A DNA stretch of 64,000 bases from contig JASNZL010000007.1 of NCBI GenBank assembly GCA_048499675.1, positions 2,401 through 66,400 on the forward strand. The letters are read 5' to 3'. Source of the stretch: Candidatus Zambryskiibacteriota bacterium. Its GTDB lineage: Bacteria; Patescibacteriota; Minisyncoccia; Phycocordibacterales; WO2-35-19. Shown here one piece after another: positions 19,869-63,908 of the stretch (position 1 is its first letter; every line of letters starts with the position of its first letter). Below the pieces are notes generated by a model that was not told the DNA's origin, searched no databases, and saw only the letters and a program-made list of their open reading frames with translations. The translations under genes and the position numbers were made by a program.

Positions 19869-19896
19869 AATAAAACTTTAGATTAAAAACTTAGTT

Positions 19897-20002
19897 CTGG
19901 CGGCTACCTACTTTCCCCTTTACGAGTATCATCGGCACTATAGAGCTTAACTTCCGTGTTCGGAATGAGAACGGGTGTGGCCTCTATGTTAAACCACCAA
20001 AA
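19897..20002 (-). rRNA. rrf: 5S ribosomal RNA
   Basis: Minus-strand read …CCACACCCGTTCTCATTCCGAACACGGAAGTTAAGC…GTAGGTAGCCGCCAG. Confidence 0.8.
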
Positions 20003-20081: not shown

Positions 20082-20155
20082 TGGTAGGGCGTGTGGGATA
20101 TGAACCCACATCCTCTCCCTTATAGGGAGATGTCTTGCTCTTAGACCACCGCCCC
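20082..20155 (-). tRNA. tRNA-like element in the 23S-5S spacer with an encoded CCA and a non-canonical anticodon loop (CUAUAAG)
   Basis: The minus strand folds as GGGGCGG-TG-GTCT-AAGAGCA-AGAC-A-TCTCC-CTATAAG-GGAGA-GGAT-GTGGG-TTCATAT-CCCAC-ACGCCCT-A-CCA. All four arms form, but the implied anticodon AUA is not a known species. Confidence 0.4.
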
Positions 20156-21638: not shown

Positions 21639-22467
21639 CTGTCGTATTGCCCCAATTACTTGAGGGGTCGGACTATATCTTCACCCTTATTTTATATAAA
21701 ATAAGGGGTTCGGCGTATTAGCATGAAGTCTAGCTTCACACTCCAACCACTTAAGGTTAAGTCTCTACGGGGTCATAACCCAATTTATATTTCATGGACG
21801 GAATAATATTATTTTCTATAATTCCAAATAATTTCGAAATACTAGATGTCTTAAATCTAATTCTGTAATACTCTTTATCTTTATTTAGAGTCCCCTCTAA
21901 ACCAAATTCTTTTAGAGACCGCAATAATTTCTCTTGGTCACTTTTTGAAAATTGTTGAGTATTCAGATACACATTATTTTTTCCACATCTACTTCCGTCA
22001 TCCATAAACCATACTGCCAATATTATTGGATCTAATTTTAGATCAGGAATACATTTTTTCTTATTCCTATAAAACAAATCCATCATTTTGGTAAATTCAG
22101 GATGTTGTTTGGTAAAGAATCTATATGCAATCCGCGCACCATTTCCTTTTCGAGATTTTGGTCCACTTCTTGATAAATTTTTTAAGATTGAGAATTTCCA
22201 TTCAACATACTCTTTTTGAGTTATTGAATGATTAACTTCCAAAAATGCATTTTTTCTTCCTTTTACTCGACGAATATATCCGTCTCCTAAAAGAGTTCCG
22301 ATAATAAATGACTTCTGTAATTGAGTTAGACTTCCCTCGGTATTGTCCATATTACTAATTATATCATTTGATATAACGCCTGTTTATGGAGTCCACCGAT
22401 ATAAGCCAAATTTTTTTATATGAGATTACTCTCATAGGCACCCCGATGTGTTGTAACAACAAGTTAA
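21639..22467 (-). mobile_element. Group I-like intron in 23S domain V (after …GGCACC; E. coli ~2449 site) encoding a LAGLIDADG homing endonuclease
   Basis: The exon resumes at CGATGTCGGCTCATC. The insert contains a 594-nt ORF. Confidence 0.65.
21757..22350 (-). CDS. LAGLIDADG homing endonuclease (two-motif type)
   Basis: LLGDGYI and WFMDDGS motifs; located inside the 23S intron. Confidence 0.8.
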   Translation of the reverse strand: MDNTEGSLTQLQKSFIIGTLLGDGYIRRVKGRKNAFLEVNHSITQKEYVEWKFSILKNLSRSGPKSRKGNGARIAYRFFTKQHPEFTKMMDLFYRNKKKCIPDLKLDPIILAVWFMDDGSRCGKNNVYLNTQQFSKSDQEKLLRSLKEFGLEGTLNKDKEYYRIRFKTSSISKLFGIIENNIIPSMKYKLGYDPVET

Positions 22468-23017
22468 GGTGCCGAACTCCGCCGTCGCTCTGGACGCTTA
22501 GGCGGAACCAGCCTGTTATCCCCGGAGTAGCTTTTGTCCGATAATCTTTTGCCGCGTCTAACGCGAACAATCGGTTCACTTAGCTCTGCTTTCGCATCTG
22601 CTCCTCATGTACGAGTTGCAGTTAAGCCAGCTTGTGCCTATACACTATCGCCATGGTTTCCATTCACGGCTAGCTGACCTTAATAGGCTCCTCCGTTACT
22701 CTTTGGGAGGATAGCGCCCCACTAAAACTGCCCACCAGACACTGTTTCTTTACGTTTTTGCCGTAGAGATTAGAAAATATATCAATACAGAGTGGTATTT
22801 CACTGACGACTCCATGCTCCCCAAAAGGAACACTTCAAAGTCTCCCACCTATGCTACGCAGTAAAAACATATCCTCAATGCCAAGTTGCAGTAAAGCTTC
22901 CGGGGTCTTTTCGTCTAACTGCAGGTAACCGGCATCTTCACCGGTATTGTATTTTCACCGAGCGAGTCCCCGAGACAGTTCCCCAGTCGTTACACCATTC
23001 GTGCGCGTCTGAACTTC

Positions 23018-23373
23018 ATGTCTCGTTTTTTGTTTGCGTTATCAATCGCAAACTTACGATTTCTCTTATTTCTAAGAGCATAGACTATATCTTCATCTTA
23101 AGAGAACCTATAAATTTTATCTTAAGAGTCGGCGTGTTATAACAATGTTTTCTCAAATTTAATTGAGGCATTTGCTATCCGTTCATTTCTGAACAAGTCG
23201 TTACGGGTTCACGATTTGTCCAAATTAATATTTGGTCACAAATCGCAATTCCCACGGTATTATCTTTCCTTCAACATTCTTATCCTTGAATAAGAACTCC
23301 AGTTAAGACTTCACCGTTATTAGCCGAATTTTTTCATCGAGATTACTCTCGAAGCTGGCAATTCAATTACCAG
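23018..23373 (-). mobile_element. ORF-less intron-like insertion in 23S domain IV (after GGTAGCGAAATTCCTTGTC; E. coli ~1931 site)
   Basis: The exon resumes at AAGTTCAGACGCGCACGAATGG. The insert is ~356 nt. Confidence 0.5.
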
Positions 23374-23399
23374 ACAAGGAATTTCGCTACCTTAGGACG

Positions 23400-24148
23400 A
23401 TTCATTTCTTTTTATTACTCAGTTAGTAGCTACTGAGAGCCTCATTGTCGCCAATGAGATCGGACTATATCTTCCCAAAATGATTTCTCGCTTTAGGTCT
23501 AGCGTATAGTCTCTGAGGATTTTCTGATAAGGAATTTTTATAATCTTTTAAATTATACTTCCTTGTTCTTCCTTTTCCTTCGTTCAATTTCTCTCGAAGT
23601 TCTACAACCTTTAACATTCCGTCATTACTTAAATGTTCTTTTTTGAAAACCATTTTTGCAATTTGGGAGAAGATTGAGAAATTTTTCTTCTTATTTGAAG
23701 AAAGAAAAGAATATTTTTCAAAGAAAGGTATTATCCTTTCTTCAATAGCGACAGGATTCTCTACTACGTAGTAGCAAACCCCGTCTTTTCGTTCTTGCAA
23801 TCTTCCACATCCTAAATGATGTTTCATTAACGCAAGAACAGTTTTGTCGCGTTGAGCAACATTTAAAGTCAGTACCACTTGCCATCCAAGAGAATGATCT
23901 TCTCTTTTTCTTAGTGAGACATTGAAGCTTCCTTCTCCGTCCACAAAGCCAGCAATATAGTTTCCTATATTTTGAGGAATTGACTTAAGCCACGAAATAT
24001 CTTTCATTTTTAATTCGTTGCTTATCAGAATCTTTCCTGCGGATTGTCTGCACCGCTACATTTTTACTGCCATTTCGATTTATGACGAGTAGTAGACGGA
24101 TACTCAGAGTTTCCCGCATTTAGCTAGATTTTATAACTACAATTATCC
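23400..24148 (-). mobile_element. Intron-like insertion in the 23S (after GGCGATAACTATAA; E. coli ~1917 region) encoding a LAGLIDADG endonuclease
   Basis: The exon resumes at CGTCCTAAGGTAGCG. The insert contains a 543-nt ORF. Confidence 0.55.
23465..24007 (-). CDS. LAGLIDADG homing endonuclease (single-motif type)
   Basis: YIAGFVDGEGSF motif; located inside the 23S insertion. Confidence 0.75.
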   Translation of the reverse strand: MKDISWLKSIPQNIGNYIAGFVDGEGSFNVSLRKREDHSLGWQVVLTLNVAQRDKTVLALMKHHLGCGRLQERKDGVCYYVVENPVAIEERIIPFFEKYSFLSSNKKKNFSIFSQIAKMVFKKEHLSNDGMLKVVELREKLNEGKGRTRKYNLKDYKNSLSENPQRLYARPKARNHFGKI

Positions 24149-24389
24149 TTATAGTTATCGCCGACATTCACCAGGGCTTACAACAGTCAGCATACATCAT
24201 GCTGAGTACGAGAATTTTCAATTTGAAAATTCATACGCAGTATGATGTACACCGCCATTGTTTAACCTTCTGGCATTGGTCAGGTGTCACCCCCTATACA
24301 TCCTCTTACGAGTTCGCAGGGAGCTGTGTTTTTGATAAACAGTCGCCAGGGATTCTTTAGCTGCGGCCCAACCGCACCTCGCTACGCTC

Positions 24390-24520
24390 GGGCGGAATTC
24401 TCAATTTTTAATTTTTAATTTTCATTCAATTTTCAATGTATTAATTTCAAGTTTTTAACATTGTAAATTAGAAATTATTTGAAAATTTTAAATTGTAAAT
24501 TTTAAATTCCGTGCCGAATG
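24390..24520 (-). repeat. AT-rich intervening sequence (IVS) in the 23S, family member with similar termini
   Basis: Flanked by CCTCGCTACGCTCGGGCGG and CCGTGCCGAATGCAATGAGGCACGG, with an interior of AATTTTCAATTTT-type repeats. Confidence 0.6.
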
Positions 24521-25089
24521 CAATGAGGCACGGTCGGGCAGGCCTTATACCGAAGGTACGGCCGCTTTTTTGCCGAGTTCCTTGGGGACCTCTCACTCGT
24601 TCGCCTTGGTCTTCTCGACCTGACTACCTGTGTCGGTTTACGGTACGGTCTATTTATGCTTAACCTTAGAAGATTTTCTTGGAAGCGTGCTTTACAAACT
24701 CTTATCTGCCGAGGCTTCAAATTGTCATACTGCTTGAGGTGCAATTAAATGCAGTCTTGCGGATTTACCTACAAGACACCCTTACAGCACAAACGCAAAT
24801 CCAATAATGCGCTTTGTATACTACACTCCGTCTCTCCATCGAACATAAACAGGTGCAGGAATATTAACCTGCTGTCCATCGGGTCCGACTTTCGTCATAC
24901 CCTTAGGCCCGACTAACCCTTCCCTGATTGTCATCGGAAAGGAAACCTTAGTCTTTCGGCGCGCGCAGTTTTCATGCGCGTTGTGGTTACTTGTGCCAAC
25001 ATTCTTACTTCGTAACGCTCCAGCATGGGTCACCCCTTTGCCTTCACAGCGGATACGAATACTCTCCTACCGCGCCAGCCACACTACGC

Positions 25090-25250
25090 TACGCTCCGTG
25101 CGCTGGAATTTTCAATTTAAAATTTTCAATTTTCAATCAATTTTCAATGTCTTAATTTTGAAATTTAGAAATTAAGAATTTAATCATTGTTTAGAAATTA
25201 GAAATTAAAAATTAGAAATTCCGCACGAAATGCAATGTAGTGCGGCCGAC
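25090..25250 (-). repeat. AT-rich IVS in the 23S, family member
   Basis: Flanked by CACTACGCTACGCTCCGTGCGCTGG and CCGCACGAAATGCAATGTAGTGCGG. Confidence 0.6.
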
Positions 25251-25318
25251 ACCCTCAGTTTCGGTACATAGCTTAGCCCCGATTATCTTCGGCGCAGAAT
25301 CTCTGAATGAGTGAGCTG

Positions 25319-25361
<43 letters not shown>

Positions 25362-25940
25362 CATTGTCGGAGAAATTTCACCACCTTAAGTGCACTTAGC
25401 TATGATTTAGGGACCTTAAATTGAGATCATGGGCTGTTTCCCTTTTGACGAACGGAGCTTAGCCCCCGCCGTCTAACTGCCACGCTTTCACCCACACACT
25501 AAGTTTTCGATAGTTTTCAACGCGCTTTGCGCAATCAAAAACTTAGTGTGCGGGTTAACTATTGGTATTCGGAGTTTGATAGGTCTAGCGAGATTTCTCC
25601 CTGTCCAGACCTTCCAGTGCTCTACCCCCAATAGGAACGCGTGACGCGAACCCAAAAGCTCTTTCGGAGAGAACCAGCTATTACCAGGTTCGATTAGCTT
25701 TTCACTCCTTACCACAGGTCATCCGAAGGAATCGCACGACCAACCGGTTCGGGCCTCCATCTCGCTTTCGCGAGACTTCACCCTGCCCATGGCAAGCTCA
25801 CCTGGCTTCGGGTCTAATGTATACGACATAAAATTTCGCGCTATTCACGCTCGCTTTCACTATGCCTAACGCGGGTCGACCGCTTCGGCTGCCACATACA
25901 TTAACTCGTTGGCTCATTCTTCAATAGGCACGCCATGACC

Positions 25941-26111
25941 GTCACACCTCGCTACACTCGGTGACGGAATTTTCAATTTAAAATTTAAAATTTAAAAATA
26001 ATTTTCAATATCCCAATTCTCAATTAAGAAAATGGAAATTTAATCATTATTTAGAAATTAGAAATTAAAAATTAGAAATTCCGTTGCAACGAATGCACTG
26101 AGGTGCAACGG
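25941..26111 (-). repeat. AT-rich IVS in the 23S, family member
   Basis: Flanked by GTCACACCTCGCTACACTCGGTGAC and CCGTTGCAACGAATGCACTGAGGTGCAACGG. Confidence 0.6.
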
Positions 26112-26166
26112 CTCTGACTCCTTGTAAGCATATGGTTTCAGGTCTATTTCACCGCCCTCACCGGGC

Positions 26167-26208
<42 letters not shown>

Positions 26209-26646
26209 TAGAAATATATTTAGCCTTACCGGTTAGTTCCGGCAGATTCCCCCGAGCTATTCGTGTCTCGAGGTACTCAAGAACAACAGCAAAAAAGATT
26301 ATTTGTTTTCGACTACGGGGCTATTACCCTCTGGGGCGCTTCTTTCCAGAAGCTTCTTCTAACAAATAATTTTGTAACTTTTCTCGTATAAATACGACGC
26401 TATCGTCTTACAACCCCCGCACACTCACTTTGTCATCGTTGCATTGTGTTTTTATAAAATTTCATTGCACATCCGATTAGCTACCGAATCTTAAATTTCG
26501 TTTACTATCAAAGATGCAACAAAACACAATGACAAAGTGAGTGTGCGGGTTTGGGCTTCTCCGCTTTCGCTCGCCGCTACTCACGGAATACTTTTTAGTT
26601 TCTTTTCCTCCTGGTACTGAAATGTTTTACTTCCCAGGGTAAGCTC

Positions 26647-26805
26647 CGTGCCTCACTACCGCTCGTCACAAAATTTTCAATTTTTAATTTTGTAATTTTC
26701 ATTGAATGTTCCAATTTTAGAATTTTCAAATTGAGACATTGAAAATTTATTGGAAACTGAAAATTGATACTTGAAAATTAGTGCTGAACGAAAGTGAAGC
26801 ACGGT
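26647..26805 (-). repeat. AT-rich IVS in the 23S 5' domain, family member
   Basis: Flanked by CCGTGCCTCACTACCGCTCGTCAC and GTGCTGAACGAAAGTGAAGCACGG. Confidence 0.55.
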
Positions 26806-27523
26806 CCTCGCAAAGCGAGGGGGTTTCCCCATTCGGAAATTTCCGGATCAAAGGTTGCTAGGCACCTCCCCGAAACTTATCGCAGCCACGCCACGTCCTT
26901 CATCGCTATTTCTAGCCAAGGCATCCACCATATGCTCTTAAATTTCCTATTAGGAAATTCAAAAACCACTTGTCCGATCATTTTAATTTAAAATGATTTA
27001 GGACTTAATTATCCTGTCTTACAAGACTACAATCATCCTGCAAGACCTTTGTCTCCATATGCCGAGCTTTTTTCTCCAGCATACAGAAACTACAATATCC
27101 TGATACAAAAAATATATCAGGAAGTCCACTTCCAACAAACAAAGACCCCTTCGACTCGCTACGCTCGCTCAGGGTAAACCCTCAGCAAAAAGAAGCTCAT
27201 CAAAAAGCGATGTTGTAGTGGAATGTACCCAGTAGTAGATTTTGGCATTGAGCAAGCTCACACATACGCAAGCGTATGTTATGCCAAAATTCACTACTGG
27301 GTTTATTTGTCAAAATACAATCGTTCCGAATTTTGTCTTCTCTACCCTGTTCTTAATTTTAGCAAGCTAAAATTAAGAACAGGATTTTGAATCATTATCT
27401 TACTCAAAAAAGAACAAAAAAATCCACTTCTCTCGAAGCGGGCTCAAACCAAGCCAAAGGGTTTTTTCTACCCTCTTTTTCGCTTCGTAGTTAAAAATCT
27501 CAATAACATAATTTGTGCTATCT

Positions 27524-55587: not shown

Positions 55588-56205
55588 TCATATTAAATTG
55601 CTCTCCTTCAATGATTCATTAATAAGTCTAATTATCTTTTGTCTGTTTGGGGCAATCAGCAAAAGGTCCTCGTCTTCTATAATAGAAGAATTTATAGGTA
55701 TTAAAATGTCTGGATCGCTTCTCATATAACCAAAAATTTTTAATATTTTTAAGAGAACAAGACATTCCAAAAGTTGAATTGACTCTTTTTTTGCATTCTC
55801 AAGGTATAGCAAAAAATTATAAACAACATCAAAGAGCAAAATGTTTAATTCCTCTTCTCCTGATAACTTTTTGATAAGGTTTAAAATATTTATAGAAACA
55901 TTTAATTTATCCCTGTCGTTTTTAAAAATTTCAAATATATTTTTTTCTGAGGAAACACTAACAAGCTTCCATTCATTTCTACCTTTTACAATAGAAAAAT
56001 TTCCAAAAGAGAAGTCTTGGACTCCATATCTCATTTTTGAGTTTATTTTTCTTGCACTTTGAACTTTTGCTCTGATCAGACCAAATCTTTCGGTCAGGAT
56101 ATAAATTTTTAGACTTGAATCCCCTTCCGGATAACTCTTGAGAACTATTCCTTTTGTGTGATGCTTGTGGTACATGAAATTAGTTGGAAAGTTGAAAAGG
56201 TGCAA
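55588..56205 (-). CDS. recO: DNA repair protein RecO
   Basis: N-terminal OB-fold pattern (…TKGIVLKSYPEGDSSLKIYILTERFGLIRAKVQSARK…). Confidence 0.55.
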   Translation of the reverse strand: MHLFNFPTNFMYHKHHTKGIVLKSYPEGDSSLKIYILTERFGLIRAKVQSARKINSKMRYGVQDFSFGNFSIVKGRNEWKLVSVSSEKNIFEIFKNDRDKLNVSINILNLIKKLSGEEELNILLFDVVYNFLLYLENAKKESIQLLECLVLLKILKIFGYMRSDPDILIPINSSIIEDEDLLLIAPNRQKIIRLINESLKESNLI

Positions 56206-56416: not shown

Positions 56417-59400
56417 TTATTTTATTTTAATTTTGAATTTATAATTTCCAATTTTTATTTCTTCTCCATCCACGGCACCCAAACTAAATTCGATAATATT
56501 TGTGGGTTTTGAAATAGTAGAAAAATTTGATTCAAAAAACTTTTTTCCTTCTTCACTTGTTTCAATAATAAGTTCTATTTTGTCATTTGGTACTAAACCT
56601 TTTTCTTTTCTTAATTCCTGAATACTTCTTATAAACTCTCTCGCATTCCCCTCTTCTTCCAATTCCTTTGTTATTTCCGTATCCAACCAAACTTCTTCCT
56701 CCATGTTTCCATCAAAAGCCACTTCCTTAACATTTACCTCCTCTTTAATTAGGTTTGTGTGTTCTTCCTTATTTTTTAATTTTGAATTTTTAATTTTTAA
56801 TTTATTTAACGGTTGTCTCACTTTTATTCCTGCGCTATTTCTTTTTTCCATCGCTAGCGAGACTATTTTTCTCACTTCTTCCATTTTTTGATTTAATTCT
56901 TCATCCGCTACAACATTCTCAAGCGTAGACCACTCTTCCAAATGAACACTTTCTTTTTTGTCTCCAAAATTCAAATCTTTATAAATTGTTTCTGCAAGAA
57001 AAGGCATAAACGGCGCAAGAATTTTTGAAAGTTCTATCAAAACAAAAAGTGTGGTTTCTCTTGCTTTCTTTTGATCTTCAAAATCTTCTGATTTAAACCT
57101 ATCTCTTGATCTTCTCAAATACCAAGTTGAAAGGTCTTCCACAAACCCTCTTATTGGCCGACCCGCTTTGACGGTATCGTATTTTTCTAAATTGAGAGTC
57201 ACTTCAGTGTGCAATTCTTTTAGTCTTGAAAGGATCCATCTGTCCAAAACATTATCCGAGTTTGTATTTGGTTTTATGTTGCTCTCGTATGTTTTATAAA
57301 AAGCTACAACGTTTAGTAAAATATTTATAAGTCTTTGGTAGACTTCCTTTACATCGTCATCCCTAAAATTTAAATCTTCTGCCTGCATAACAACGGATGT
57401 CATAAGGTAGTATCGCAAGGCGTCAGCTCCATATCTATCAATTATCACAAGAGGGTCTGTATAATTGCCTTTGGACTTGCTCATTTTCTCACCATCGCTT
57501 GCAAGAATTGTTCCTGTCGTCACGACATTTTTGAATGGTTCATGGCCAAAAATTCCAACCGCAAGCGCATGCATATAATAAAACCACGTCCTTGTCTGGG
57601 CAATATACTCAGCAACAAAATCTCCGGGGCTTCTTTTTTCAAACTCCTCTTTATTTTGAAATGGATAATTGTATTCAGCAAAAGGCATTGAGCCAGACTC
57701 TACCCAACAGTCAATAACTTCGGGAATTCTTGTGAGTTTGCTTCCATCCTCATCTACAAGCTCTATTTCATCAATGTACGGTCTATGTAAATCAATCTCG
57801 TAGTTTTTGTTATGTGGAAGCGGGACAAAGTTTAGTTCTCCAAATTCTGCTGTTTTAAATCTGTATTGTTTTTTTTCTTTTATTTCTTTTCTTTGTTCTT
57901 TGTCTAAAACGTAAGCAGAACCAAAGAGAGCATTTATTGTGCCCTGATGACTAACTATTAAAATATTTTTACCTTTATATTTATTCTCTAAATCGTATAT
58001 AAAATCTCCGACTCGTATATGGAGACTATCGAGAGACTCTACACCTTCTATATTTTTTTCATACTTTTCTCTTTCTGTTTTGAAGTTGCTATCAAACTCT
58101 TTCCAAGTTTTGCCTTCATAATTTTTACCAATTTGGTATTCAGTTATTCTCTCATCTACCAAAATATTTTCTTGATTCAGACCAAAATGCTTAGCTATAA
58201 TTTCTCCAGTTTCTACACATCTTGTTAAAGGCGAAGTAATGATTAAATCTATTTTTTTGTTTTTTATATCAGATGCAACTACCGAAACTTCTCTTTGGCC
58301 CTCCTCCGTTAAATGAAAAACATTATTGGGATCTGCGTTTACGAAGTCTTTTAGATTAGCTTCTGACTCTCCATGTCGCATTACAAAATATTTGTTTCCA
58401 GATTTCTTGACATATTTTTTTAATTCTTCTACTCCGCTTATAACTTTTACTTCTCCTTTATCATTCTTCCATATAGGTAAAGGTGAGGCCCAAAATCTAT
58501 TTCGGCTAATTGTCCAATCTGGCGCTTTTTCTACTATATCTCTAAATCTTCCATTTTTTAAGTGAGCCGGAACCCAGTTTATATTTTCGTTTTTGGAAAG
58601 CATTTCGCTTTTTATTTTTTGAATATCTATAAACCAACTCGAGAGCGCGTTGTAAATAAGTGGAGTGGAACATCTGTAACAATGTGGGTAAGAGTGAGTG
58701 TTTGGTTTTTTATCAAACAAAAGACTTCTTTTCTCCAAATCTTCTATGACCATTTTTTCTGCTTTTTTGATGTAGACACCTTTTACGAATTCCGGAGCAT
58801 TGTCGTTGTAGTGACCATTTGAAAGAAGGAGCGGGACCATTGGCAAATCTGCTTTGAGACCTAACTGGTAGTCGTCTTCTCCATAAATTACAGCGGTGTG
58901 CACAATGCCTGTCCCCTCTTCCGTATTTACAAAATCAGCTGACAAAACATACCACGCTTTTTTGCCTGTATTTTTTACTGCATCCAAATGATAAAGTGGC
59001 TCGTATTCTAAACCAGCCAAATCTTTGCCTTTTATTTCTTTTTTTATTTCATATTCTTGCCCACCGAAAATACTTTCTACTCTATCTTTTGCCAATATGT
59101 AATTTTCTTTAGTGCTTAGTGCTTCGCTTTTTTTAACTTCGACTATTACATAATCAATATCGTCCCCCACCGCCAAAGCAACATTCGCTGGAAGTGTCCA
59201 TGGGGTTGTCGTCCAAGCCAACAGATAGCTATTTTTAAATTTTTCATTTTTAATTTTAAATTTTATAGTGACCGCTTCTTCTGTGACATCCTTGTATGAA
59301 TTATCCATAGCAATCTCTGCTTTTGAGAGAGGAGTCTCACATCTTGGACAATAGAGCAAAACTTTCCTGCCCTCGTAGAGCATTCCTTTTTTTTGGATAT

Positions 59401-59881
59401 GGGAAATCGCCCACCAAACACTCTCGGTATAGCTTGTATCCATCGTCTTGTAGGAATTATCAAAATCTACAAAACGAGCAAGTCTATCTATATATTTTTT
59501 CCAATCGTTAACATAGGTCAAAACTTGAGACCTACATTCTTCGTTGAACTTTGCAATCCCCATCTCCTCTATATCTTTTTTGTGTTTGAGTCCGAGTTTT
59601 TTCTCTACTATGTTTTCTACTGGAAGTCCGTGACAATCCCAACCCCACCTTCTGCGAACATTGTAGCCCTGCATAGTTTTGAAACGCGGGAAAAGATCTT
59701 TGGCGGTTGAACCGAGTAAATGTCCGTAGTGAGGTAATCCTGTTGCAAAAGGGGGTCCATCATAAAAAACAAACTCCCCTTTAGGTGAAGGTTTCTCTAA
59801 TGTTTTTTCAAAAATTTTATTTTCCTGCCAAAATTTTAAAATTTCTTCTTCTTGCTGTGCAATTTTACTTTTTTCTGTCAT
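56417..59881 (-). CDS. ileS: Isoleucyl-tRNA synthetase carrying an inserted histidine-phosphatase (PGAM-like) domain
   Basis: HYGH and KMSKS class I motifs, CP1 editing domain and anticodon-binding domain. Residues ~497-690 form a complete RHGE…SHQG histidine-phosphatase domain (FVMRHGESEANL … LIVSHQGTINAL). It is inserted between …WTISRNRFWASPLPIW and …DCWVESGS. Confidence 0.85.
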   Translation of the reverse strand: MTEKSKIAQQEEEILKFWQENKIFEKTLEKPSPKGEFVFYDGPPFATGLPHYGHLLGSTAKDLFPRFKTMQGYNVRRRWGWDCHGLPVENIVEKKLGLKHKKDIEEMGIAKFNEECRSQVLTYVNDWKKYIDRLARFVDFDNSYKTMDTSYTESVWWAISHIQKKGMLYEGRKVLLYCPRCETPLSKAEIAMDNSYKDVTEEAVTIKFKIKNEKFKNSYLLAWTTTPWTLPANVALAVGDDIDYVIVEVKKSEALSTKENYILAKDRVESIFGGQEYEIKKEIKGKDLAGLEYEPLYHLDAVKNTGKKAWYVLSADFVNTEEGTGIVHTAVIYGEDDYQLGLKADLPMVPLLLSNGHYNDNAPEFVKGVYIKKAEKMVIEDLEKRSLLFDKKPNTHSYPHCYRCSTPLIYNALSSWFIDIQKIKSEMLSKNENINWVPAHLKNGRFRDIVEKAPDWTISRNRFWASPLPIWKNDKGEVKVISGVEELKKYVKKSGNKYFVMRHGESEANLKDFVNADPNNVFHLTEEGQREVSVVASDIKNKKIDLIITSPLTRCVETGEIIAKHFGLNQENILVDERITEYQIGKNYEGKTWKEFDSNFKTEREKYEKNIEGVESLDSLHIRVGDFIYDLENKYKGKNILIVSHQGTINALFGSAYVLDKEQRKEIKEKKQYRFKTAEFGELNFVPLPHNKNYEIDLHRPYIDEIELVDEDGSKLTRIPEVIDCWVESGSMPFAEYNYPFQNKEEFEKRSPGDFVAEYIAQTRTWFYYMHALAVGIFGHEPFKNVVTTGTILASDGEKMSKSKGNYTDPLVIIDRYGADALRYYLMTSVVMQAEDLNFRDDDVKEVYQRLINILLNVVAFYKTYESNIKPNTNSDNVLDRWILSRLKELHTEVTLNLEKYDTVKAGRPIRGFVEDLSTWYLRRSRDRFKSEDFEDQKKARETTLFVLIELSKILAPFMPFLAETIYKDLNFGDKKESVHLEEWSTLENVVADEELNQKMEEVRKIVSLAMEKRNSAGIKVRQPLNKLKIKNSKLKNKEEHTNLIKEEVNVKEVAFDGNMEEEVWLDTEITKELEEEGNAREFIRSIQELRKEKGLVPNDKIELIIETSEEGKKFFESNFSTISKPTNIIEFSLGAVDGEEIKIGNYKFKIKIK

Positions 59882-59955
59882 TCCTCAATAGTAGCCGATT
59901 TCTCTCACTTTTTCAAAAGATTTTGTATTTTGTTTTCTATCTCTTGTGCTTAATC
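59879..59955. repeat. Direct repeat copy 1 (~75 bp, includes GAGGAA-ATG of ileS)
   Basis: cattcctcaatagtagccgatttctctcactttttcaaaagattttgtattttgttttctatctcttgt, repeated at 60451-60527 with one mismatch. Confidence 0.85.
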
Positions 59956-60060: not shown

Positions 60061-60453
60061 CTATCTGATAAAATTTCTCAATTTTTCTCTCATTTTTACA
60101 AAAATATCTGGAGCGATTTCATATAATTTTCTTTTCAATCTTTTTACACTCACAAGCTTCATTTGAGCCAAAATAACAGAAACTTTTTGATTATTTGGGT
60201 CTGTAAAATTGAAGTAAAAATCAAATTTCTTTTGTTTAGTAGAAAGTGGAACACACCAAAACATATGATTGTTAAATTTCTTAATAACAAGGACTGGTCT
60301 TGAAAAATTATCACCGCTTCCATTTTGCTCATACCCAATATTTTTACCAATTGAAGACATCCAAACTTCCGCTTCTTTCGGAAAATAATTAGGAGAACCA
60401 TTTTCAAACTGTATTTTCTTTTTAAGTTCGTTCCATGAGTCGTATTCGTTCAT
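60061..60453 (-). CDS. PemK/MazF-family toxin (mRNA interferase-like); no adjacent antitoxin
   Basis: …EAEVWMSSIGKNIGYEQNGSGDNFSRPVLVIKKF…CVPLSTKQ… matches the PemK/Kid pattern GEIW…G.EQ.G.RPVLIV…VPVTS. Bracketed by the ~75-bp direct repeats. Confidence 0.6.
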   Translation of the reverse strand: MNEYDSWNELKKKIQFENGSPNYFPKEAEVWMSSIGKNIGYEQNGSGDNFSRPVLVIKKFNNHMFWCVPLSTKQKKFDFYFNFTDPNNQKVSVILAQMKLVSVKRLKRKLYEIAPDIFVKMREKLRNFIR

Positions 60454-60527
60454 TCCTCAATATTAGCCGATTTCTCTCACTTTTTCAAAAGATTTTGTAT
60501 TTTGTTTTCTATCTCTTGTTTAATCGC
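60451..60527. repeat. Direct repeat copy 2 (overlaps the last 17 codons of the RT gene and supplies GAGGAA-ATG of the MazF-like gene)
   Basis: See copy 1. Confidence 0.85.
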
Positions 60528-61484
60528 AAACTGATTTCCATGTTTCAATAATCCACAATATGAAGTGAGCACATTTACATTTTCACTCTCTTTTAATGCC
60601 TTAGTTACTCTTCTTTTAGTACTTGTCCTTAAAACTCTATGATTAGGAAAATGAACCCAACCCAAAAAATCAAGTCCAGAATAAATTGTCTTTATAAACA
60701 CTTTATCCGGATGAAATTCTAGCTTTAATTTTTTTTGAAGAAAATTGGAAATTTTTGGCATAAGGTTTAACAGAATATTTTTATCACTATCAAAAATAAC
60801 AAAATCATCAGCGTATCTAATATAATATTTAATTTTTAGTTTATGTTTTACAAACTGATCAAATTTATTCATATAAACATTGACCAAAAGTTGGGAAGTT
60901 AGATTACCCAAAGGGAGACCTGTATTTGGTTTACCAATTGTATTAAAACTTTCAATTACTCTCTCCAATAACCAAACTATGTCTTTGTCTTGTATATATT
61001 CATTTAAAATATTAATCAAAATCTCGTGATTTATTGAAGCAAAAAACTTTTTTATATCGCACTTCAATATATAACATTGTTTTGTATTATTTTTTGATAC
61101 TTTTGTACCAAAAAATCTAAATCTATTTATAGCCCTATGTGTTCCTTTGTTTAATCTGCACGAATAAGAATCATATATAAAAAGTTGGTCAAAATATGGG
61201 TATAAAACTCTATGTATGGCGTGGTGCAAAAGACGATCCCTTACACTTGCCTTGTGTATGTTTCTTGGTTTTGGGTCACTTATATTAAACGCTTTGTATC
61301 CATCATGTTTGTATGTTTTGTTTTTGAGAGCATGGTGTAAATCAATAATGTTTCCTGATAAATTTAGAGCAAACTCCGCGACATCTTTTTTATCTTTTTT
61401 ACCTTTTATGAATTCCTGCCATGATTCAAAAAGATTTTTAATTGATATAATATTTTCATAATCAATTTTAATTAAATTTTTCAT
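60477..61484 (-). CDS. Diversity-generating retroelement (DGR) reverse transcriptase
   Basis: Start MKNLIKIDYENIISIKNLFESWQEFIKGKKDKKDVAEF (DGR-RT N-terminus). Motifs SVRDRLLHHA, CDIKKFFASINHEIL, the DGR hallmark GLPLGNLTSQ (SQ in place of the SP of group II RTs), and YIRYADDFVIF. No maturase or endonuclease domain. The track ORF is extended artefactually to 61535 through the 5'-UTR hairpin and G11. Confidence 0.85.
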   Translation of the reverse strand: MKNLIKIDYENIISIKNLFESWQEFIKGKKDKKDVAEFALNLSGNIIDLHHALKNKTYKHDGYKAFNISDPKPRNIHKASVRDRLLHHAIHRVLYPYFDQLFIYDSYSCRLNKGTHRAINRFRFFGTKVSKNNTKQCYILKCDIKKFFASINHEILINILNEYIQDKDIVWLLERVIESFNTIGKPNTGLPLGNLTSQLLVNVYMNKFDQFVKHKLKIKYYIRYADDFVIFDSDKNILLNLMPKISNFLQKKLKLEFHPDKVFIKTIYSGLDFLGWVHFPNHRVLRTSTKRRVTKALKESENVNVLTSYCGLLKHGNQFAIKQEIENKIQNLLKK

Positions 61485-61869
61485 ATGAATACCAATTCTA
61501 CCCCCCCCCCGAGGATTACCACAAGTAATCCTCAAAGAAAAAGAAACGTATATTCTTTGGCAAAGATTACATAAAAATTTTCCAAAAGTTGAACGATTTG
61601 GTTTAGGACAAAAGATCGAAAATTTGTTTCTTTCTATTTTGGAATTAACTTTTTCTTCCGCCTATTTATCCCTCGAACCTAAAATATTGATGCTTGGCAA
61701 GACTATATCTCGACTTGATGTCCTTAAATTTTTTATTCAGATTGCTTGGGAGAATAAACTAATTTCAACAGAACAACACATTGCACTTTCAAACAACTTA
61801 GAGGAAATTGGCCGACAACTCGGTGGTTGGAAAAAAGGTTTAAAAACAAAACTCCCACCTAAAAAATGA
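61485..61869 (+). CDS. avd: DGR accessory variability determinant (Avd-like four-helix-bundle protein); N-terminus disrupted or phase-shifted by a C11 homopolymer
   Basis: The frame beginning at TTG 61558 gives …VYSLQRLHKNFPKVERFGLGQKIENL…LISTEQHIALSNNLEEIGRQLGGWKK, matching the Avd/TIGR02436 pattern. An ATG at 61485, head-to-head with the RT start codon (CATATG), would join this frame if the C-tract were 10 or 13 nt long. Confidence 0.55.
61501..61534. promoter_or_regulatory. C11/G11 homopolymer plus a 9-bp-stem hairpin (GAGGATTAC-CACAA-GTAATCCTC) in the 5' region shared by divergent avd and RT
   Basis: Direct sequence observation. This is the only long homopolymer in the window. Confidence 0.7.
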
Positions 61870-61885
61870 TGGGAGAAATGACTAG

Positions 61886-62005
61886 TTTCGGGACGACAAT
61901 CCGATGACGGTTGTCGCCATTCCACACATTGTCGTTCGAGAAGTGGTTGACGTTAGCGTTCGGCTTACCATCACTGTTCAGATTCACGTTAGCAACGAAG
62001 AATTT
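61886..62005 (-). repeat. DGR template repeat (TR)
   Basis: ~120 nt matching the VR at 62317-62436 with 20 mismatches. Every mismatch is at a position that is A in the TR (minus strand). The TR reading frame is rich in AAC/AAT codons (…NVNLNSDGKPNANVNHFSNDNVWNGDNRHRIVV). Confidence 0.85.
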
Positions 62006-62240
62006 GTGCAATAAATCTTCCATTACACCACTTATCAAATCATGATGAGTTGAATATTATCCGGGACATAAAAGTCCGCCAATTTAGCGCACCAACTAAT
62101 TATTTTTTATTTATAAGAATATACCCACTCTTTTGTAAGACTTATCCGACAAAATTCTCAAACATATTTTTATACAACTATGGCACCAAAGCCATGACCA
62201 TGGCACTTTGCATATATTGCAAATTTAGTATAACAAAAAT

Positions 62241-62278
62241 CCCTCAGACCCGCCCACAATTAGGAAAGGGTCTGAGGG
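62241..62278 (-). terminator. GC-rich hairpin 24 nt downstream of the VR/target stop (DGR-type cruciform and/or terminator)
   Basis: CCCTCAGACCC-N16-GGGTCTGAGGG followed by a T-run on the minus strand. Confidence 0.55.
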
Positions 62279-62301
62279 ATTAAGAATTAGAGGGTTAAGA
62301 G

Positions 62302-62931
62302 CTAAGCTACGAGGGTCTGCGGGACGACAAACCGATGACGGTAGTCGCCAAGCCACACAACGTCGCCCGAGAAGTGGTTGACGCAAGCGTCCGGCCCACC
62401 AGCACCGTACAGATGCACGAAAGCAACGAAGAATTCATCGCCCACCTTGAACAAAAAGAAGGTGGCGTATCCGTCAGTGCGGAGCCACTTCTTGTGGTTT
62501 TCCACAAAAGCAACGATTTGCTCCTGGGTCAGACAAAGATCGTCCCGTTCGCGACCAAGACTGCCGAAGATAGTTTTAAAATCGCCATCCTTGACCATCT
62601 CGTAGACCTCAACGGGAGTTTCCGGCTTTGCCTCCCCTGGGACATCCAAACCCCAGTTTTTGAACTCGGAGTCAATGCCCAAAGTGAACACATCACCGGC
62701 GGAAGAGACCATCCTTTGGCCGGTCGTGGCACGGATCGCGATTCGCTTTCCGCCGGAGATGAGGCGGAGAATTGGTTCTACCTCGACCTTCACCCAGCAG
62801 GGTTCCTTGCGGAGGAACTTTTTGAACTCTGCAATCCACTTGGTCCCGTCGGGACCAGACAGCTTCTCAAAAAAATCTGTGATTGCTCCGGCCACTTCAG
62901 CCAGAGTGTTTGTGCCGAGTACGCTTGACAT
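62302..62931 (-). CDS. DGR variable (target) protein, small and cytoplasmic, with the VR in its last ~40 codons
   Basis: 209 aa with no signal peptide. The VR is at 62317-62436 (…FFVAFVHLYGAGGPDACVNHFSGDVVWLGDYRHRFVVPQTLVA). The CDS is ~53% GC, against ~30% for the RT and avd. Confidence 0.75.
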   Translation of the reverse strand: MSSVLGTNTLAEVAGAITDFFEKLSGPDGTKWIAEFKKFLRKEPCWVKVEVEPILRLISGGKRIAIRATTGQRMVSSAGDVFTLGIDSEFKNWGLDVPGEAKPETPVEVYEMVKDGDFKTIFGSLGRERDDLCLTQEQIVAFVENHKKWLRTDGYATFFLFKVGDEFFVAFVHLYGAGGPDACVNHFSGDVVWLGDYRHRFVVPQTLVA

Positions 62932-63032: not shown

Positions 63033-63908
63033 TTAGAGCGTATTTAGAAATTTTTTTATCTCCTCAAACTCCTCTGGCAAAGCCGATTCTACTTTTATAT
63101 GAGTTCCGCTTGGTAATTCCAATTTTATAGAAACGGCATGAAGCATTAATCTTTGCTTTTTCTTATCGTAACTCGTATCTCGTAACTCGTGCTTCATGCC
63201 CCCATATACTTTATCTCCTACGACAGGGTGCCCTATTGATTTCAAATGGACTCTAATCTGATGAGTTCTGCCAGTTTTTGGTTTTACTTCTACATAAGCC
63301 CCCACTTCGCCAAGGCTACGCGGGGTAAATAACCCTTGAGCTAAAACCTTGTATCCTGTGACCGCTTCCCTCAACTCCCCTTTTGCTCCATACTCTGCTG
63401 ACCACTTTCTAAAATCAGAAGCGCTCCGCCCAATTGGTTTGTCTATCACCCCTTCCAATTTATCTTCATTAAATTTACCCCAAACTACAGCGTGATAAAT
63501 TTTCTCTACTTTTCTAGCTTGGAATTGCTCTTTGAGATATTGATGAGCTTCTTTGGTTTTTGCAACCAAAATAACTCCACTTGTATCTTTGTCCAGTCGG
63601 TGCACTATCCCCGGTCTTTTTATGACTTCACCATTTTGTAAAATTTGTTCTTCCCCAACATCCTTAAGTTCTGGGTAATTTTGAAGAATCCAATCAGTCA
63701 AAGTTTTTTCTTTGCTCCTACTATCGGAACCTGCCCCGCGATCTGCGTCAGCTGATTTTGCGGAACCTGCCCCGCGATCTGCGTCAGCTGATTTTGCGGG
63801 GCTTGCCCCGCGATCTGCGTTAGTAGATTTTGCGGGGTGAACCAAAAGCCCACAAGGTTTATCAAGAGCCAATATATATTCGTCTTCATACAATATTTTT
63901 ATTTCCAT
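63033..63908 (-). CDS. RluA-family pseudouridine synthase with an in-frame 3 x 36-bp GC-rich tandem repeat insertion
   Basis: VHRLDKDTSG catalytic motif and RTHQIRVH motif. The repeat at 63727-63834 encodes (AKSADADRGAGS)x3. Confidence 0.8.
   Translation of the reverse strand: MEIKILYEDEYILALDKPCGLLVHPAKSTNADRGASPAKSADADRGAGSAKSADADRGAGSDSRSKEKTLTDWILQNYPELKDVGEEQILQNGEVIKRPGIVHRLDKDTSGVILVAKTKEAHQYLKEQFQARKVEKIYHAVVWGKFNEDKLEGVIDKPIGRSASDFRKWSAEYGAKGELREAVTGYKVLAQGLFTPRSLGEVGAYVEVKPKTGRTHQIRVHLKSIGHPVVGDKVYGGMKHELRDTSYDKKKQRLMLHAVSIKLELPSGTHIKVESALPEEFEEIKKFLNTL

Follow-up and report, generated by a model that had tools for sequence, protein, structure and literature searches.

A predicted histidine phosphatase nested in the CP3 subdomain of isoleucyl-tRNA synthetase in Paceibacteria

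Aminoacyl-tRNA synthetases rank among the most conserved enzymes known. The isoleucyl-tRNA synthetase (IleRS) described here shares the HIGH and KMSKS signatures with the IleRS2 of Priestia megaterium (8C8V) and the IleRS of Thermus thermophilus (1ILE). It also has the same domain order, namely Rossmann fold, CP core, CP1 editing domain, CP2, CP3, anticodon-binding domain and type-2 C-terminal region (DUF5915). Type-2 IleRS is the eukaryote-like, mupirocin-resistant type. Unlike the present protein, none of the solved IleRS structures has a 204-residue enzyme domain inside CP3, and the present protein has lost the cysteines of the CP3 Zn knuckle, which are retained in most of its relatives. 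The CP1 editing domain is a precedent for a catalytic domain nested in a class I Rossmann fold. However, CP1 is universal and acts on aminoacyl-tRNA, whereas the insert is lineage-specific and a predicted phosphatase. Catalytic domains nested in an insertion of the class I Rossmann fold are, to our knowledge and with the exception of the editing domain, essentially unknown in bacteria.

The insert resembles the broad-specificity phosphatase PhoE of G. stearothermophilus (1EBB/1H2E), PspA of H. thermophilus (4IJ5) and CobC with an identity of only about 20-24%, and those proteins are free-standing, whereas the domain here is nested in another enzyme. Free-standing phosphatases of Paceibacteria are closer, with about 45% identity at best (P0014) over the domain, which they also match in length and at both termini; they share the neighbourhood argS...ileS...recO, but adjoin an ileS without insert. 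A second catalytic domain joined to a housekeeping enzyme is likewise found in IleRS with a GNAT domain (NF040702), in PFK-2/FBPase-2 and in the Rv2228c-type RNase H/acid phosphatase (NF005567). The present protein does not belong to the first of these, as it reached 347.4 bits against a cut-off of 1999 for NF040702 and has no GNAT domain in Pfam. The histidine-phosphatase fusions known to us are all end-to-end, none of them nested.

The synthetase and the site of insertion

The window, by which we mean the whole stretch of 64,000 nucleotides that was analysed, carries an ileS gene without internal stops in the ORF list (Table 1). The insert-bearing ileS is the sole IleRS gene seen at the locus. 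PemK-like toxin genes are found nearby in the window. The ileS product scored 862.6 bits against the NCBIfam ileS equivalog TIGR00392 (cut-off 621.4), and in a Pfam scan of the whole protein tRNA-synt_1 was split around His_Phos_1 and followed by Anticodon_1 and DUF5915. The HIGH and KMSKS positions were invariant or nearly so in 38 full-length homologues. In the same homologues W223, T224, T225, T226, P227 and T229 of the editing motif WTTTPWT were invariant, as were G323, G325, H328 and D337 of the GTG..H...D motif downstream of it. Judged from these motifs and profiles, the type-2 IleRS is complete, with the synthetic site, the CP1 editing site, the anticodon-binding domain and the C-terminal domains intact, and its predicted functions are formation of Ile-tRNA(Ile) and editing of Val.

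An AF2 model of the ileS product was obtained with a pLDDT of 90.9 and a pTM of 0.83. Its best PDB matches were IleRS2 8c8v (E=1e-86) and T. thermophilus 1ile, and the IleRS scaffold superposed on 1ile with a target-normalised TM of 0.93 at 2.8 A. In the model, the scaffold thus appears to be undisturbed by the insert.

Insert boundaries were set by alignment with the insert-less ileS of four loci (L084, L085, L087 and L089). The initial annotation had reported a full histidine-phosphatase domain of about 195 residues at 57812-58393 (residues 497-690) in an otherwise intact IleRS. Pfam, TIGR00392 and the motifs agree with this, the range is essentially right although the alignment widens it to 57788-58399 (residues 495-698), and all the motifs quoted in it are present in the ORF, with WTISRNRFW starting at residue 456, RHGESE at 502, TSPLTR at 549, SHQGT at 644, HRPYID at 699 and DCWVESGS at 724. 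The host site had been described as a short linker in the catalytic core. It is instead the CP3 subdomain of about 50-60 residues, in most relatives folded as a Zn knuckle. The placement in the core was overstated, as CP3 is a peripheral, structurally variable and permissive host site whose topology differs among the IleRS structures of T. thermophilus, S. aureus and C. albicans (PMC7191050). The insert lies between the two CP3 halves, and both junctions are in frame and inside conserved CP3 in the alignment. The N-terminal half has KNDKG in place of the Zn-knuckle CxxC of the relatives; the C-terminal half aligns with insert-less ileS, and H699, P701 and D704 in it are invariant. In yeast IleRS, the CP2-3 linker lines the pocket for tRNA-CCA and reveromycin, and CP3 follows directly after this linker (PMC7955072).

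Table 1. Features of the insert-bearing ileS and its downstream neighbour (positions in the window)
Feature	Position	Strand	Residues	Remarks
recO, downstream synteny marker	55588..56205	(-)		RecO_N E=7e-12
ileS, type-2 isoleucyl-tRNA synthetase with nested predicted phosphatase	56417..59881	(-)		1154 aa, single ORF
HYGH (HIGH) class I signature	59720..59731	(-)	51-54	P50, H54 nearly invariant
CP1 editing-domain Thr-rich motif WTTTPWT	59195..59215	(-)	223-229	
CP3 N-terminal half	58400..58486	(-)	466-494	From alignments and the published CP3 definition (PMC7191050, PMC7955072)
Inserted module	57788..58399	(-)	495-698	204 aa; branch-1 histidine phosphatase (predicted) plus 12-residue return linker (PLPHNKNYEI..)
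Pfam His_Phos_1 (PF00300) match	57893..58387	(-)	499-663	E=3.4e-29, 102.4 bits vs gathering cut-off 21.7
RHG motif	58370..58378	(-)	502-504	H503, predicted phospho-accepting nucleophile
Second phosphate-binding Arg (TSPLTR motif)	58220..58222	(-)	554	Kept in 200/200
Predicted general acid Glu	58139..58141	(-)	581	Aligned with Glu of PhoE 'REIHLG' (1ebb)
Second catalytic His (VSHQG)	57947..57949	(-)	645	Kept in 200/200
CP3 C-terminal half, HRPYIDEIELVDEDGSKLTRIPEVI	57713..57787	(-)	699-723	Leads into strand DCWVESGS
KMSKS class I signature	57473..57487	(-)	799-803	K799, S801, K802 invariant

The predicted phosphatase domain

By sequence the insert is a complete PhoE/PspA/CobC-like branch-1 histidine phosphatase inside CP3. 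It matched the His_Phos_1 profile far above the gathering cut-off, and has the alpha/beta fold of that family. Among 200 insert-bearing sequences R502, H503, R554, E615 and H645 were present in every one, and position 581 was Glu in 194 (97%) and Asp in five. The glycine of the RHG motif, G504, was kept in 184 of the 200 and replaced by A, T or C in the other 16, and the next residue varied too. The mean pairwise identity was 31% for the insert as compared to 42% for the synthetase core. The (nearly) invariant Arg-His...Arg...Glu...His set bears out the initial proposal in strongly implying a second catalytic activity, for which phosphatase chemistry via a phospho-His is predicted.

The closest relatives of the insert, by sequence as well as by structure, are small-molecule phosphatases. 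Several characterised subfamilies were considered and rejected by their NCBIfam cut-offs, namely the alpha-ribazole phosphatase CobC (77.8 bits vs 162.9), the phosphoserine phosphatase PspA (53.4 vs 350) and the phosphohistidine phosphatase SixA (36.5 vs 74.5). Cofactor-dependent phosphoglycerate mutase (dPGM) was likewise rejected, with 90.9 bits for dPGM_arch (cut-off 225) and 40.9 for GpmB (cut-off 261). The substrate-binding residues of dPGM are E-R-H-Y-G after the acid Glu and H-G-N after the second His, and at these positions the insert has E-Y-Q-I-G and H-Q-G-T; the PDB chains of dPGM cover only the N-terminal half of the profile. Because the cut-off of every characterised subfamily was missed, the substrate class is a guess, and family resemblance would suggest a small phosphorylated metabolite or a nucleotide-like compound. 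The initial annotation had named a nucleotide by-product, the tRNA 3' end or an alarmone as putative targets.

An intein or another selfish in-frame insertion was rejected as well, since no Hint or homing-endonuclease domain was detected by Pfam in the whole protein and the insert is homologous end to end to a cellular enzyme. The GC content of the insert is 0.31, slightly below the 0.34-0.37 of the flanking ileS, and is no signature of recent foreign origin.

Distribution and gene neighbourhood

The initial annotation had treated the architecture as unfamiliar. It is no single case: a survey of related IleRS sequences found the same intact insert-bearing ORF, with the insert at the same site, in at least 80 GTDB species genomes, and the phosphatase-in-IleRS architecture is thus common in Paceibacteria. 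The count refers to the genomes inspected, and 168 further genomes are candidates. Nearly all of the 80 are labelled as members of the Patescibacteria group (Nomura-, Adler-, Taylor-, Vogel- and Zambryskibacteria, Paceibacterota, Minisyncoccia), a few have generic names only and one is labelled Spirochaetia; the closed chromosome CP060229.1 is among them. At E<1e-30 there were 77 protein clusters, and an identical protein was found on two independent contigs. An entire enzyme embedded in CP3 of IleRS is accordingly a design common to at least 80 species of these ultra-small, host-dependent bacteria.

Some ValRS carry the phosphatase domain at the homologous CP3 site, and also in the CP2 region (P0110, P0235-P0237 and L094), and some variants of both IleRS and ValRS have two to four tandem phosphatase domains. 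No description of a phosphatase-bearing IleRS or ValRS was found in full-text literature searches, nor did a targeted check find one mentioned in a survey from 2026 that comprised about 96,000 IleRS sequences.

Many database relatives are short proteins on long contigs. Truly split IleRS genes were rejected as their explanation, as these contigs come from long-read assemblies riddled with frameshifts, and their argS is disrupted as well. Several of the C-terminal pieces start exactly 48 residues before the query, and this common start is a conserved internal Met chosen by gene callers.

The four nearest free-standing homologues (P0014, P0022, P0030 and P0057) are proteins of about 190 aa encoded near argS and upstream of an ileS whose product is 944-977 aa long and has no insert, in the gene order argS-phosphatase-ileS-x-recO. 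The gap between phosphatase and ileS is 5-6 nt in three of these loci, and in that of P0030 one 238-aa ORF lies between. The insert aligned with the free-standing protein of L084 at 45% identity (E=1e-35), from residue 5 of the latter to its C-terminal ...ELN, and the free-standing homologue has the same catalytic residues as the insert in the alignment. As in the window, recO is found downstream in the loci of free-standing genes (L084, L085, L087 and L089). Among the 80 insert-bearing loci argS was upstream in 50 and recO downstream in 52, and a free-standing phosphatase copy was found within 4 kb in none of them; a search of the window and of the flanks of all loci also found no free-standing His_Phos gene. 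Since the insert-bearing loci keep the synteny and are without the free-standing gene, the insert appears to have been captured into CP3 from the neighbouring phosphatase gene as an entire coding sequence. What appears to be new here is that the nearest free-standing homologues adjoin an insert-less ileS, which points to capture of a neighbouring gene. The change from argS-phosphatase-ileS to argS-ileS with the phosphatase inside would then illustrate with unusual clarity how, in nature, an essential protein can take up a whole gene in a permissive loop, and would make a 'Rosetta-stone' link between the phosphatase family and IleRS/ValRS.

More distant free-standing homologues (P0076, P0078, P0081 and P0082) are not adjacent to ileS, and the adjacency is therefore confined to close relatives in Paceibacteria. 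The source of P0076 is named Gracilibacteria, and the neighbourhoods of P0081 and P0082 are not patescibacterial-looking. Neighbour-joining trees (without bootstraps), built for both the phosphatase domain and the IleRS core, were star-like, with the insert-less L087 and L089 interleaved with insert-bearing sequences and a few inserts branching near the free-standing clade, a picture that would suit a single capture as well as several.

Possible roles of the nested phosphatase

We consider it somewhat more probable than the alternatives taken together that the protein is a single-chain bifunctional IleRS carrying an autonomous phosphomonoesterase captured from the neighbouring gene. As the closest free-standing homologues are separate proteins encoded beside ileS, the simplest reading is that an autonomous phosphatase was captured, and not one designed for the chemistry of the synthetase. 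The ancestor would have been a small free-standing phosphatase gene directly upstream of ileS in related Paceibacteria; its entire coding sequence would have been duplicated into the CP3 tip, with later loss of the free-standing gene. The module most likely still performs the job of the free-standing enzyme, and would work autonomously on a permissive surface subdomain. H503 would be phosphorylated transiently in the course of phosphomonoester hydrolysis; R502, R554 and H645 would bind the phosphoryl group, and E581 would supply the proton. IleRS would mainly be a carrier that guarantees co-expression, with its aminoacylation and editing chemistry unchanged. If the module is autonomous, CP3 would be a ready-made site for engineered domain insertions in class Ia synthetases, and the insert would hint at a housekeeping phosphatase activity indispensable even to reduced genomes. 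However, neither the recurrence in CP3 of ValRS nor the tandem copies are predicted by a purely passive carrier. Simple loss of a stop codon would give an N-terminal fusion. The insert instead lies nested some 490 residues from the start of the protein, and its position may have been selected for; this site comes directly after the linker lining the tRNA-CCA pocket in yeast (PMC7955072).

These observations would fit better with coupling in cis, a smaller but real possibility, in which the phosphatase acts on something that the synthetase itself handles and forms a third catalytic site. Candidate reactions are removal of a 2'- or 3'-phosphate from damaged tRNA 3' ends before charging, and hydrolysis of a nucleotide by-product, be it AMP or another product derived from the adenylate. 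The domain in CP3 and CP2 of ValRS, the two to four tandem copies, the nested and not terminal insertion, the contribution of the CP2-3 linker to the yeast tRNA-CCA/reveromycin pocket (PMC7955072) and the tight operon linkage of the free-standing gene to ileS all speak for it. The linkage may be mere synteny, as housekeeping genes without relation to each other (pyrH-like, argS, recO) stand together in the operon. In the PhoE work of Rigden et al., enzymes of this type reportedly accept nucleotides such as AMP, which would suit such coupling; destruction of AMP would on the other hand be wasteful for organisms dependent on nucleotide salvage. We know of no member of the histidine-phosphatase superfamily that acts on RNA ends, and this counts against coupling. 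Furthermore, the phosphatase is a separate 190-aa protein in sister lineages, so its function does not depend on tethering, and the paper on yeast IleRS with tRNA names CP3 only once, in a list of domains. It is rather doubtful, in our view, that a histidine phosphatase was repeatedly taken into CP3 of the class Ia editing synthetases of Patescibacteria (IleRS and ValRS) for action in cis on their own substrates, where it might heal 2'/3'-phosphorylated tRNA 3' ends, clear an inhibitory nucleotide by-product or remove phosphate placed on the KMSKS loop by toxin kinases. Should the phosphatase serve the synthetase, by repairing tRNA ends, removing by-products or reversing phosphorylation by toxins, this would be a new quality-control step in tRNA charging.

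An unlikely role is that of a protein phosphatase that reverses inhibitory phosphorylation on targets such as the KMSKS loop of its own synthetase or neighbouring translation factors, and so shields translation against kinase toxins of the HipA/HipT type. HipA-family kinases inactivate the class I synthetases GltX and TrpS by phosphorylating a serine in the KMSKS region, and the PemK-like toxin genes of the window would mark a genome rich in conflict systems. Yet IleRS is not among the Hip targets known to us, and no kinase gene was seen in any of the neighbourhoods inspected. The closest relatives being small-molecule phosphatases, and the SixA score being below its cut-off, also argue against this role.

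We regard it as no less improbable that the domain turns over no substrate and is a ligand sensor, an allosteric switch or a structural spacer, tying for instance IleRS activity to a phosphorylated metabolite. A sensor would conserve the phosphate-binding residues too, and the replaced glycine of the RHG motif in 16 of the 200 sequences, with the variable residue after it, would be in line with such a role. Against it, all five catalytic residues (R502, H503, R554, E581 and H645) are kept in 97-100% of the sequences, and the free-standing ancestor would be a stand-alone, enzyme-sized protein with the same residues.

The mis-assembly or read-through fusion of two genes that the initial annotation had allowed for, or a chimeric contig, has next to no probability: many database relatives are short fragments, but these stem from the frameshift-ridden contigs, whereas 80 independent genomes including the closed chromosome show one unbroken ORF in which the insert has the same position, with both junctions in frame within conserved CP3 and the identical protein on two contigs.

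A phosphatase nested in the CP3 subdomain of IleRS

The initial annotation had described the ileS product of the window as an isoleucyl-tRNA synthetase (IleRS) with a histidine phosphatase inside its catalytic core. The phosphatase domain inside IleRS is real and far beyond chance. The window protein scored 862.6 bits with the NCBIfam ileS equivalog (cut-off 621.4), and Pfam gave tRNA-synt_1 in two parts, Anticodon_1, DUF5915 and a significant match to the predicted family His_Phos_1 (PF00300) at residues 499-663 (E=3.4e-29, 102 bits vs gathering score 21.7). All the strings quoted from the sequence alone were found where expected: HYGH (51-54), WTISRNRFW (456), RHGESE (502), TSPLTR (549), SHQGT (644), HRPYID (699), DCWVESGS (724) and KMSKS (799-803).

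Alignment with the close insert-less IleRS of four loci (L084, L085, L087 and L089) placed the extra segment between '...GS.EELKK' and 'DLHRPYID...', with one half of the CP3 subdomain on either side. Most relatives have a CxxC in both halves, giving a Zn knuckle of the same sort as in T. thermophilus IleRS, whereas the window protein has lost the CP3 cysteines. CP3 in published IleRS structures is a small subdomain leading from CP2 to the second half of the Rossmann fold, and its topology is not alike among Thermus, Staphylococcus and Candida (PMC7191050). The segment directly preceding CP3 is the CP2-3 linker (residues 453-465, APDWTISRNRFWA), which in yeast IleRS forms part of the lining of the tRNA-CCA/reveromycin pocket (PMC7955072).

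Both enzymes look functional. The IleRS signatures HIGH, KMSKS, the editing-site motifs WTTTPWT and GTG..H..D, WxISRxRxW and DxW..SG were invariant or nearly so in 38 full-length homologues. In 200 insert-bearing sequences R502, H503, S550, R554, E615 and H645 were invariant, with Glu at position 581 in 97% and Asn at position 509 in 95%. Mean pairwise identity was only 31% for the insert vs 42% for the synthetase core. The AlphaFold2 model of the whole protein was confident (pLDDT 90.9, pTM 0.83), and its synthetase scaffold superposed on the solved type-2 IleRS 8c8v (E=1e-86) and on 1ile (TM 0.93 normalised to target, 2.8 Å). None of the solved IleRS structures matched has the extra domain.

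In the established chemistry of this superfamily the RHG-motif His is the nucleophile that takes up the phosphoryl group, giving a phospho-His intermediate that is later hydrolysed; two Arg and a second His keep the phosphoryl in place, and a Glu donates a proton to the leaving group. As every needed catalytic residue is present and conserved, we infer that the insert is an active phosphomonoesterase. The dPGM-specific substrate-binding residues are absent, which points to a phosphatase and not to a mutase, and the window protein reached none of the NCBIfam thresholds for characterised subfamilies.

Distribution and multi-domain variants

A profile search with the insert region in GTDB species-representative genomes gave at least 248 tblastn-confirmed candidates and, taken from these, at least 80 insert-bearing loci. 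Nearly all of the 80 carried Patescibacteria-group labels (Nomura-, Adler-, Taylor-, Vogel-, Zambryskibacteria, Paceibacterota, Minisyncoccia), a few had generic labels only, and one was on a closed chromosome. One, labelled Spirochaetia (L058, QYPD01000003.1), has its insert-bearing ileS on an 8.5-kb contig that is probably a mis-binned Patescibacteria contig.

Mis-assembly, raised initially as a possible explanation, did not hold: wherever the contig permitted, these loci had a single continuous ORF (~1100-1300 aa from stop to stop) in which the insert kept its position. An exhaustive HMMER search against 1.84 billion cluster representatives yielded 77 clusters at E<1e-30, the best 150 matches included ~40 full-length IleRS (1100-1470 aa, insert at residues ~460-730), and the window's own protein was recorded from two independent contigs. 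An assembly artefact is excluded. The short 'fragment' proteins dominating the first search came from frameshifted long-read contigs.

Two phosphatase domains were found in four IleRS (P0189, P0214, P0216, P0225). Another IleRS (P0159) has an extra P-loop kinase-like (AAA_18) domain at a second site (residues ~725-910, after DCWFESGSMPYA), and P0129 an IS200-type Y1 transposase domain in the CP1 region and a C-terminal GNAT domain. P0110, a ValRS by score (valS 410 bits vs ileS 199 bits), contains four copies of the phosphatase domain, one of them after 'DWCISRQIWWGHRIPVWY', at the homologous CP3 site. Further phosphatase-bearing ValRS are P0235-P0237 and locus L094 (4369-8188 of a 195-kb contig); in P0110 and L094 the multiple domains (up to four) occupy two insertion sites, one being the CP3 site homologous to that of IleRS.

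The phosphatase-bearing IleRS belongs to a known kind, the synthetases with an extra catalytic domain, and is widespread within one bacterial radiation. In public databases such proteins go by automatic names ('isoleucyl-tRNA synthetase' or 'histidine phosphatase family protein, partial'). Neither full-text literature searches nor a check of a 2026 survey of ~96,000 IleRS sequences turned up any account of an IleRS or ValRS with a phosphatase domain; NCBIfam provides an exception model for GNAT-bearing IleRS and none for this architecture.

Probable origin from a neighbouring gene and possible roles

The main new finding concerns the evolutionary origin of the insert, which is clear and points to an operon neighbour. 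Its nearest free-standing homologues (188-198 aa) were up to 45% identical to it. The genes of three (P0014, P0022, P0057) lie just after argS and are separated by 5-6 nt from a downstream ileS that lacks the insert; for P0030 one additional 238-aa ORF separates phosphatase gene and ileS. The order (pyrH-like)-argS-phosphatase-ileS-x-recO-DUF11/CLIPPER protein was conserved in 4/4 nearest homologues looked up, and the window matches it in ileS, recO (55588-56205) and a 649-aa DUF11 protein. Among the 80 insert-bearing loci, argS was upstream in 50 (abutting ileS in ~19) and recO downstream in 52, and in no case did a separate phosphatase gene lie within 4 kb. The alignment of insert and free-standing protein starts at residue 5 of the latter ('NKYY.LRHGE' against 'NKYFVMRHGE') and reaches the last residues ('...ELN' against '...ELNF'). 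Parsimoniously, the neighbouring coding sequence would have been captured whole into CP3 and the original copy then lost. NJ trees did not separate one capture from several. The more distant homologues P0076, P0078, P0081 and P0082 showed no ileS linkage; P0076 is named Gracilibacteria by its source, and the neighbourhoods of P0081 and P0082 do not look patescibacterial.

The complementary distribution of insert and free-standing gene implies that the nested domain has kept the function of the separate enzyme. We lean towards an autonomous phosphatase module with IleRS as carrier, because in sister lineages the same enzyme works without a tether and because CP3 is variable and peripheral. A cis-coupled role, with the tRNA 3'-end phosphate and adenylate by-products among possible targets, is a tentative second reading; in its favour, the domain recurs in ValRS and occurs in tandem copies, the fusion is nested and not terminal, and CP3 lies close to the CCA-pocket linker. 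Less likely than either, and both improbable, are a protein-phosphatase role and a non-catalytic sensor role.

Surroundings of ileS in the window

Features of the window
Feature	Position	Strand	Remarks
5S rRNA	19895-20001		
tRNA-Tyr	20082-20155	-	ARAGORN, anticodon 'ata' at position 33; Rfam also tRNA
23S rRNA match	22429-26953	-	4525 nt vs 2925-nt model
ileS ORF	56417-59881	-	ORF listing; uninterrupted, 1154 aa
Extra segment	57788-58399	-	204 aa, residues 495-698; alignment to insert-less IleRS
PemK/MazF-like toxin ORF	60061-60453	-	between DGR reverse transcriptase and ileS start
DGR reverse transcriptase	60477-61535	-	RVT_1, 1e-24
bAvd-like ORF of DGR	61624-61869		
DGR template repeat	61889-62004		
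DGR target ORF	62302-62931	-	GC-rich (0.53); variable repeat at its 3' end
DGR variable repeat	62320-62435		116 nt, 84% identical to template repeat
RluA-type pseudouridine synthase	63033-63908	-	

A diversity-generating retroelement (DGR, 60477-62931) adjoins ileS; read on the minus strand, the mismatches between its repeats are nearly all at template adenines, with one at T. The toxin ORF is flanked by a perfect 48-nt direct repeat (59900-59947 and 60472-60519), an arrangement suggesting that a cassette was recently inserted or duplicated. The 23S rRNA carries ~1.6 kb of insertions; CPR bacteria typically have intervening sequences like these. The tRNA-Tyr adjoins the 5S rRNA; its anticodon is unusual and the assignment looks odd. 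Near its N-terminus the RluA-type synthase has ~3 internal copies of a low-complexity repeat, (S/G)(P/S)AKSADADRGA.
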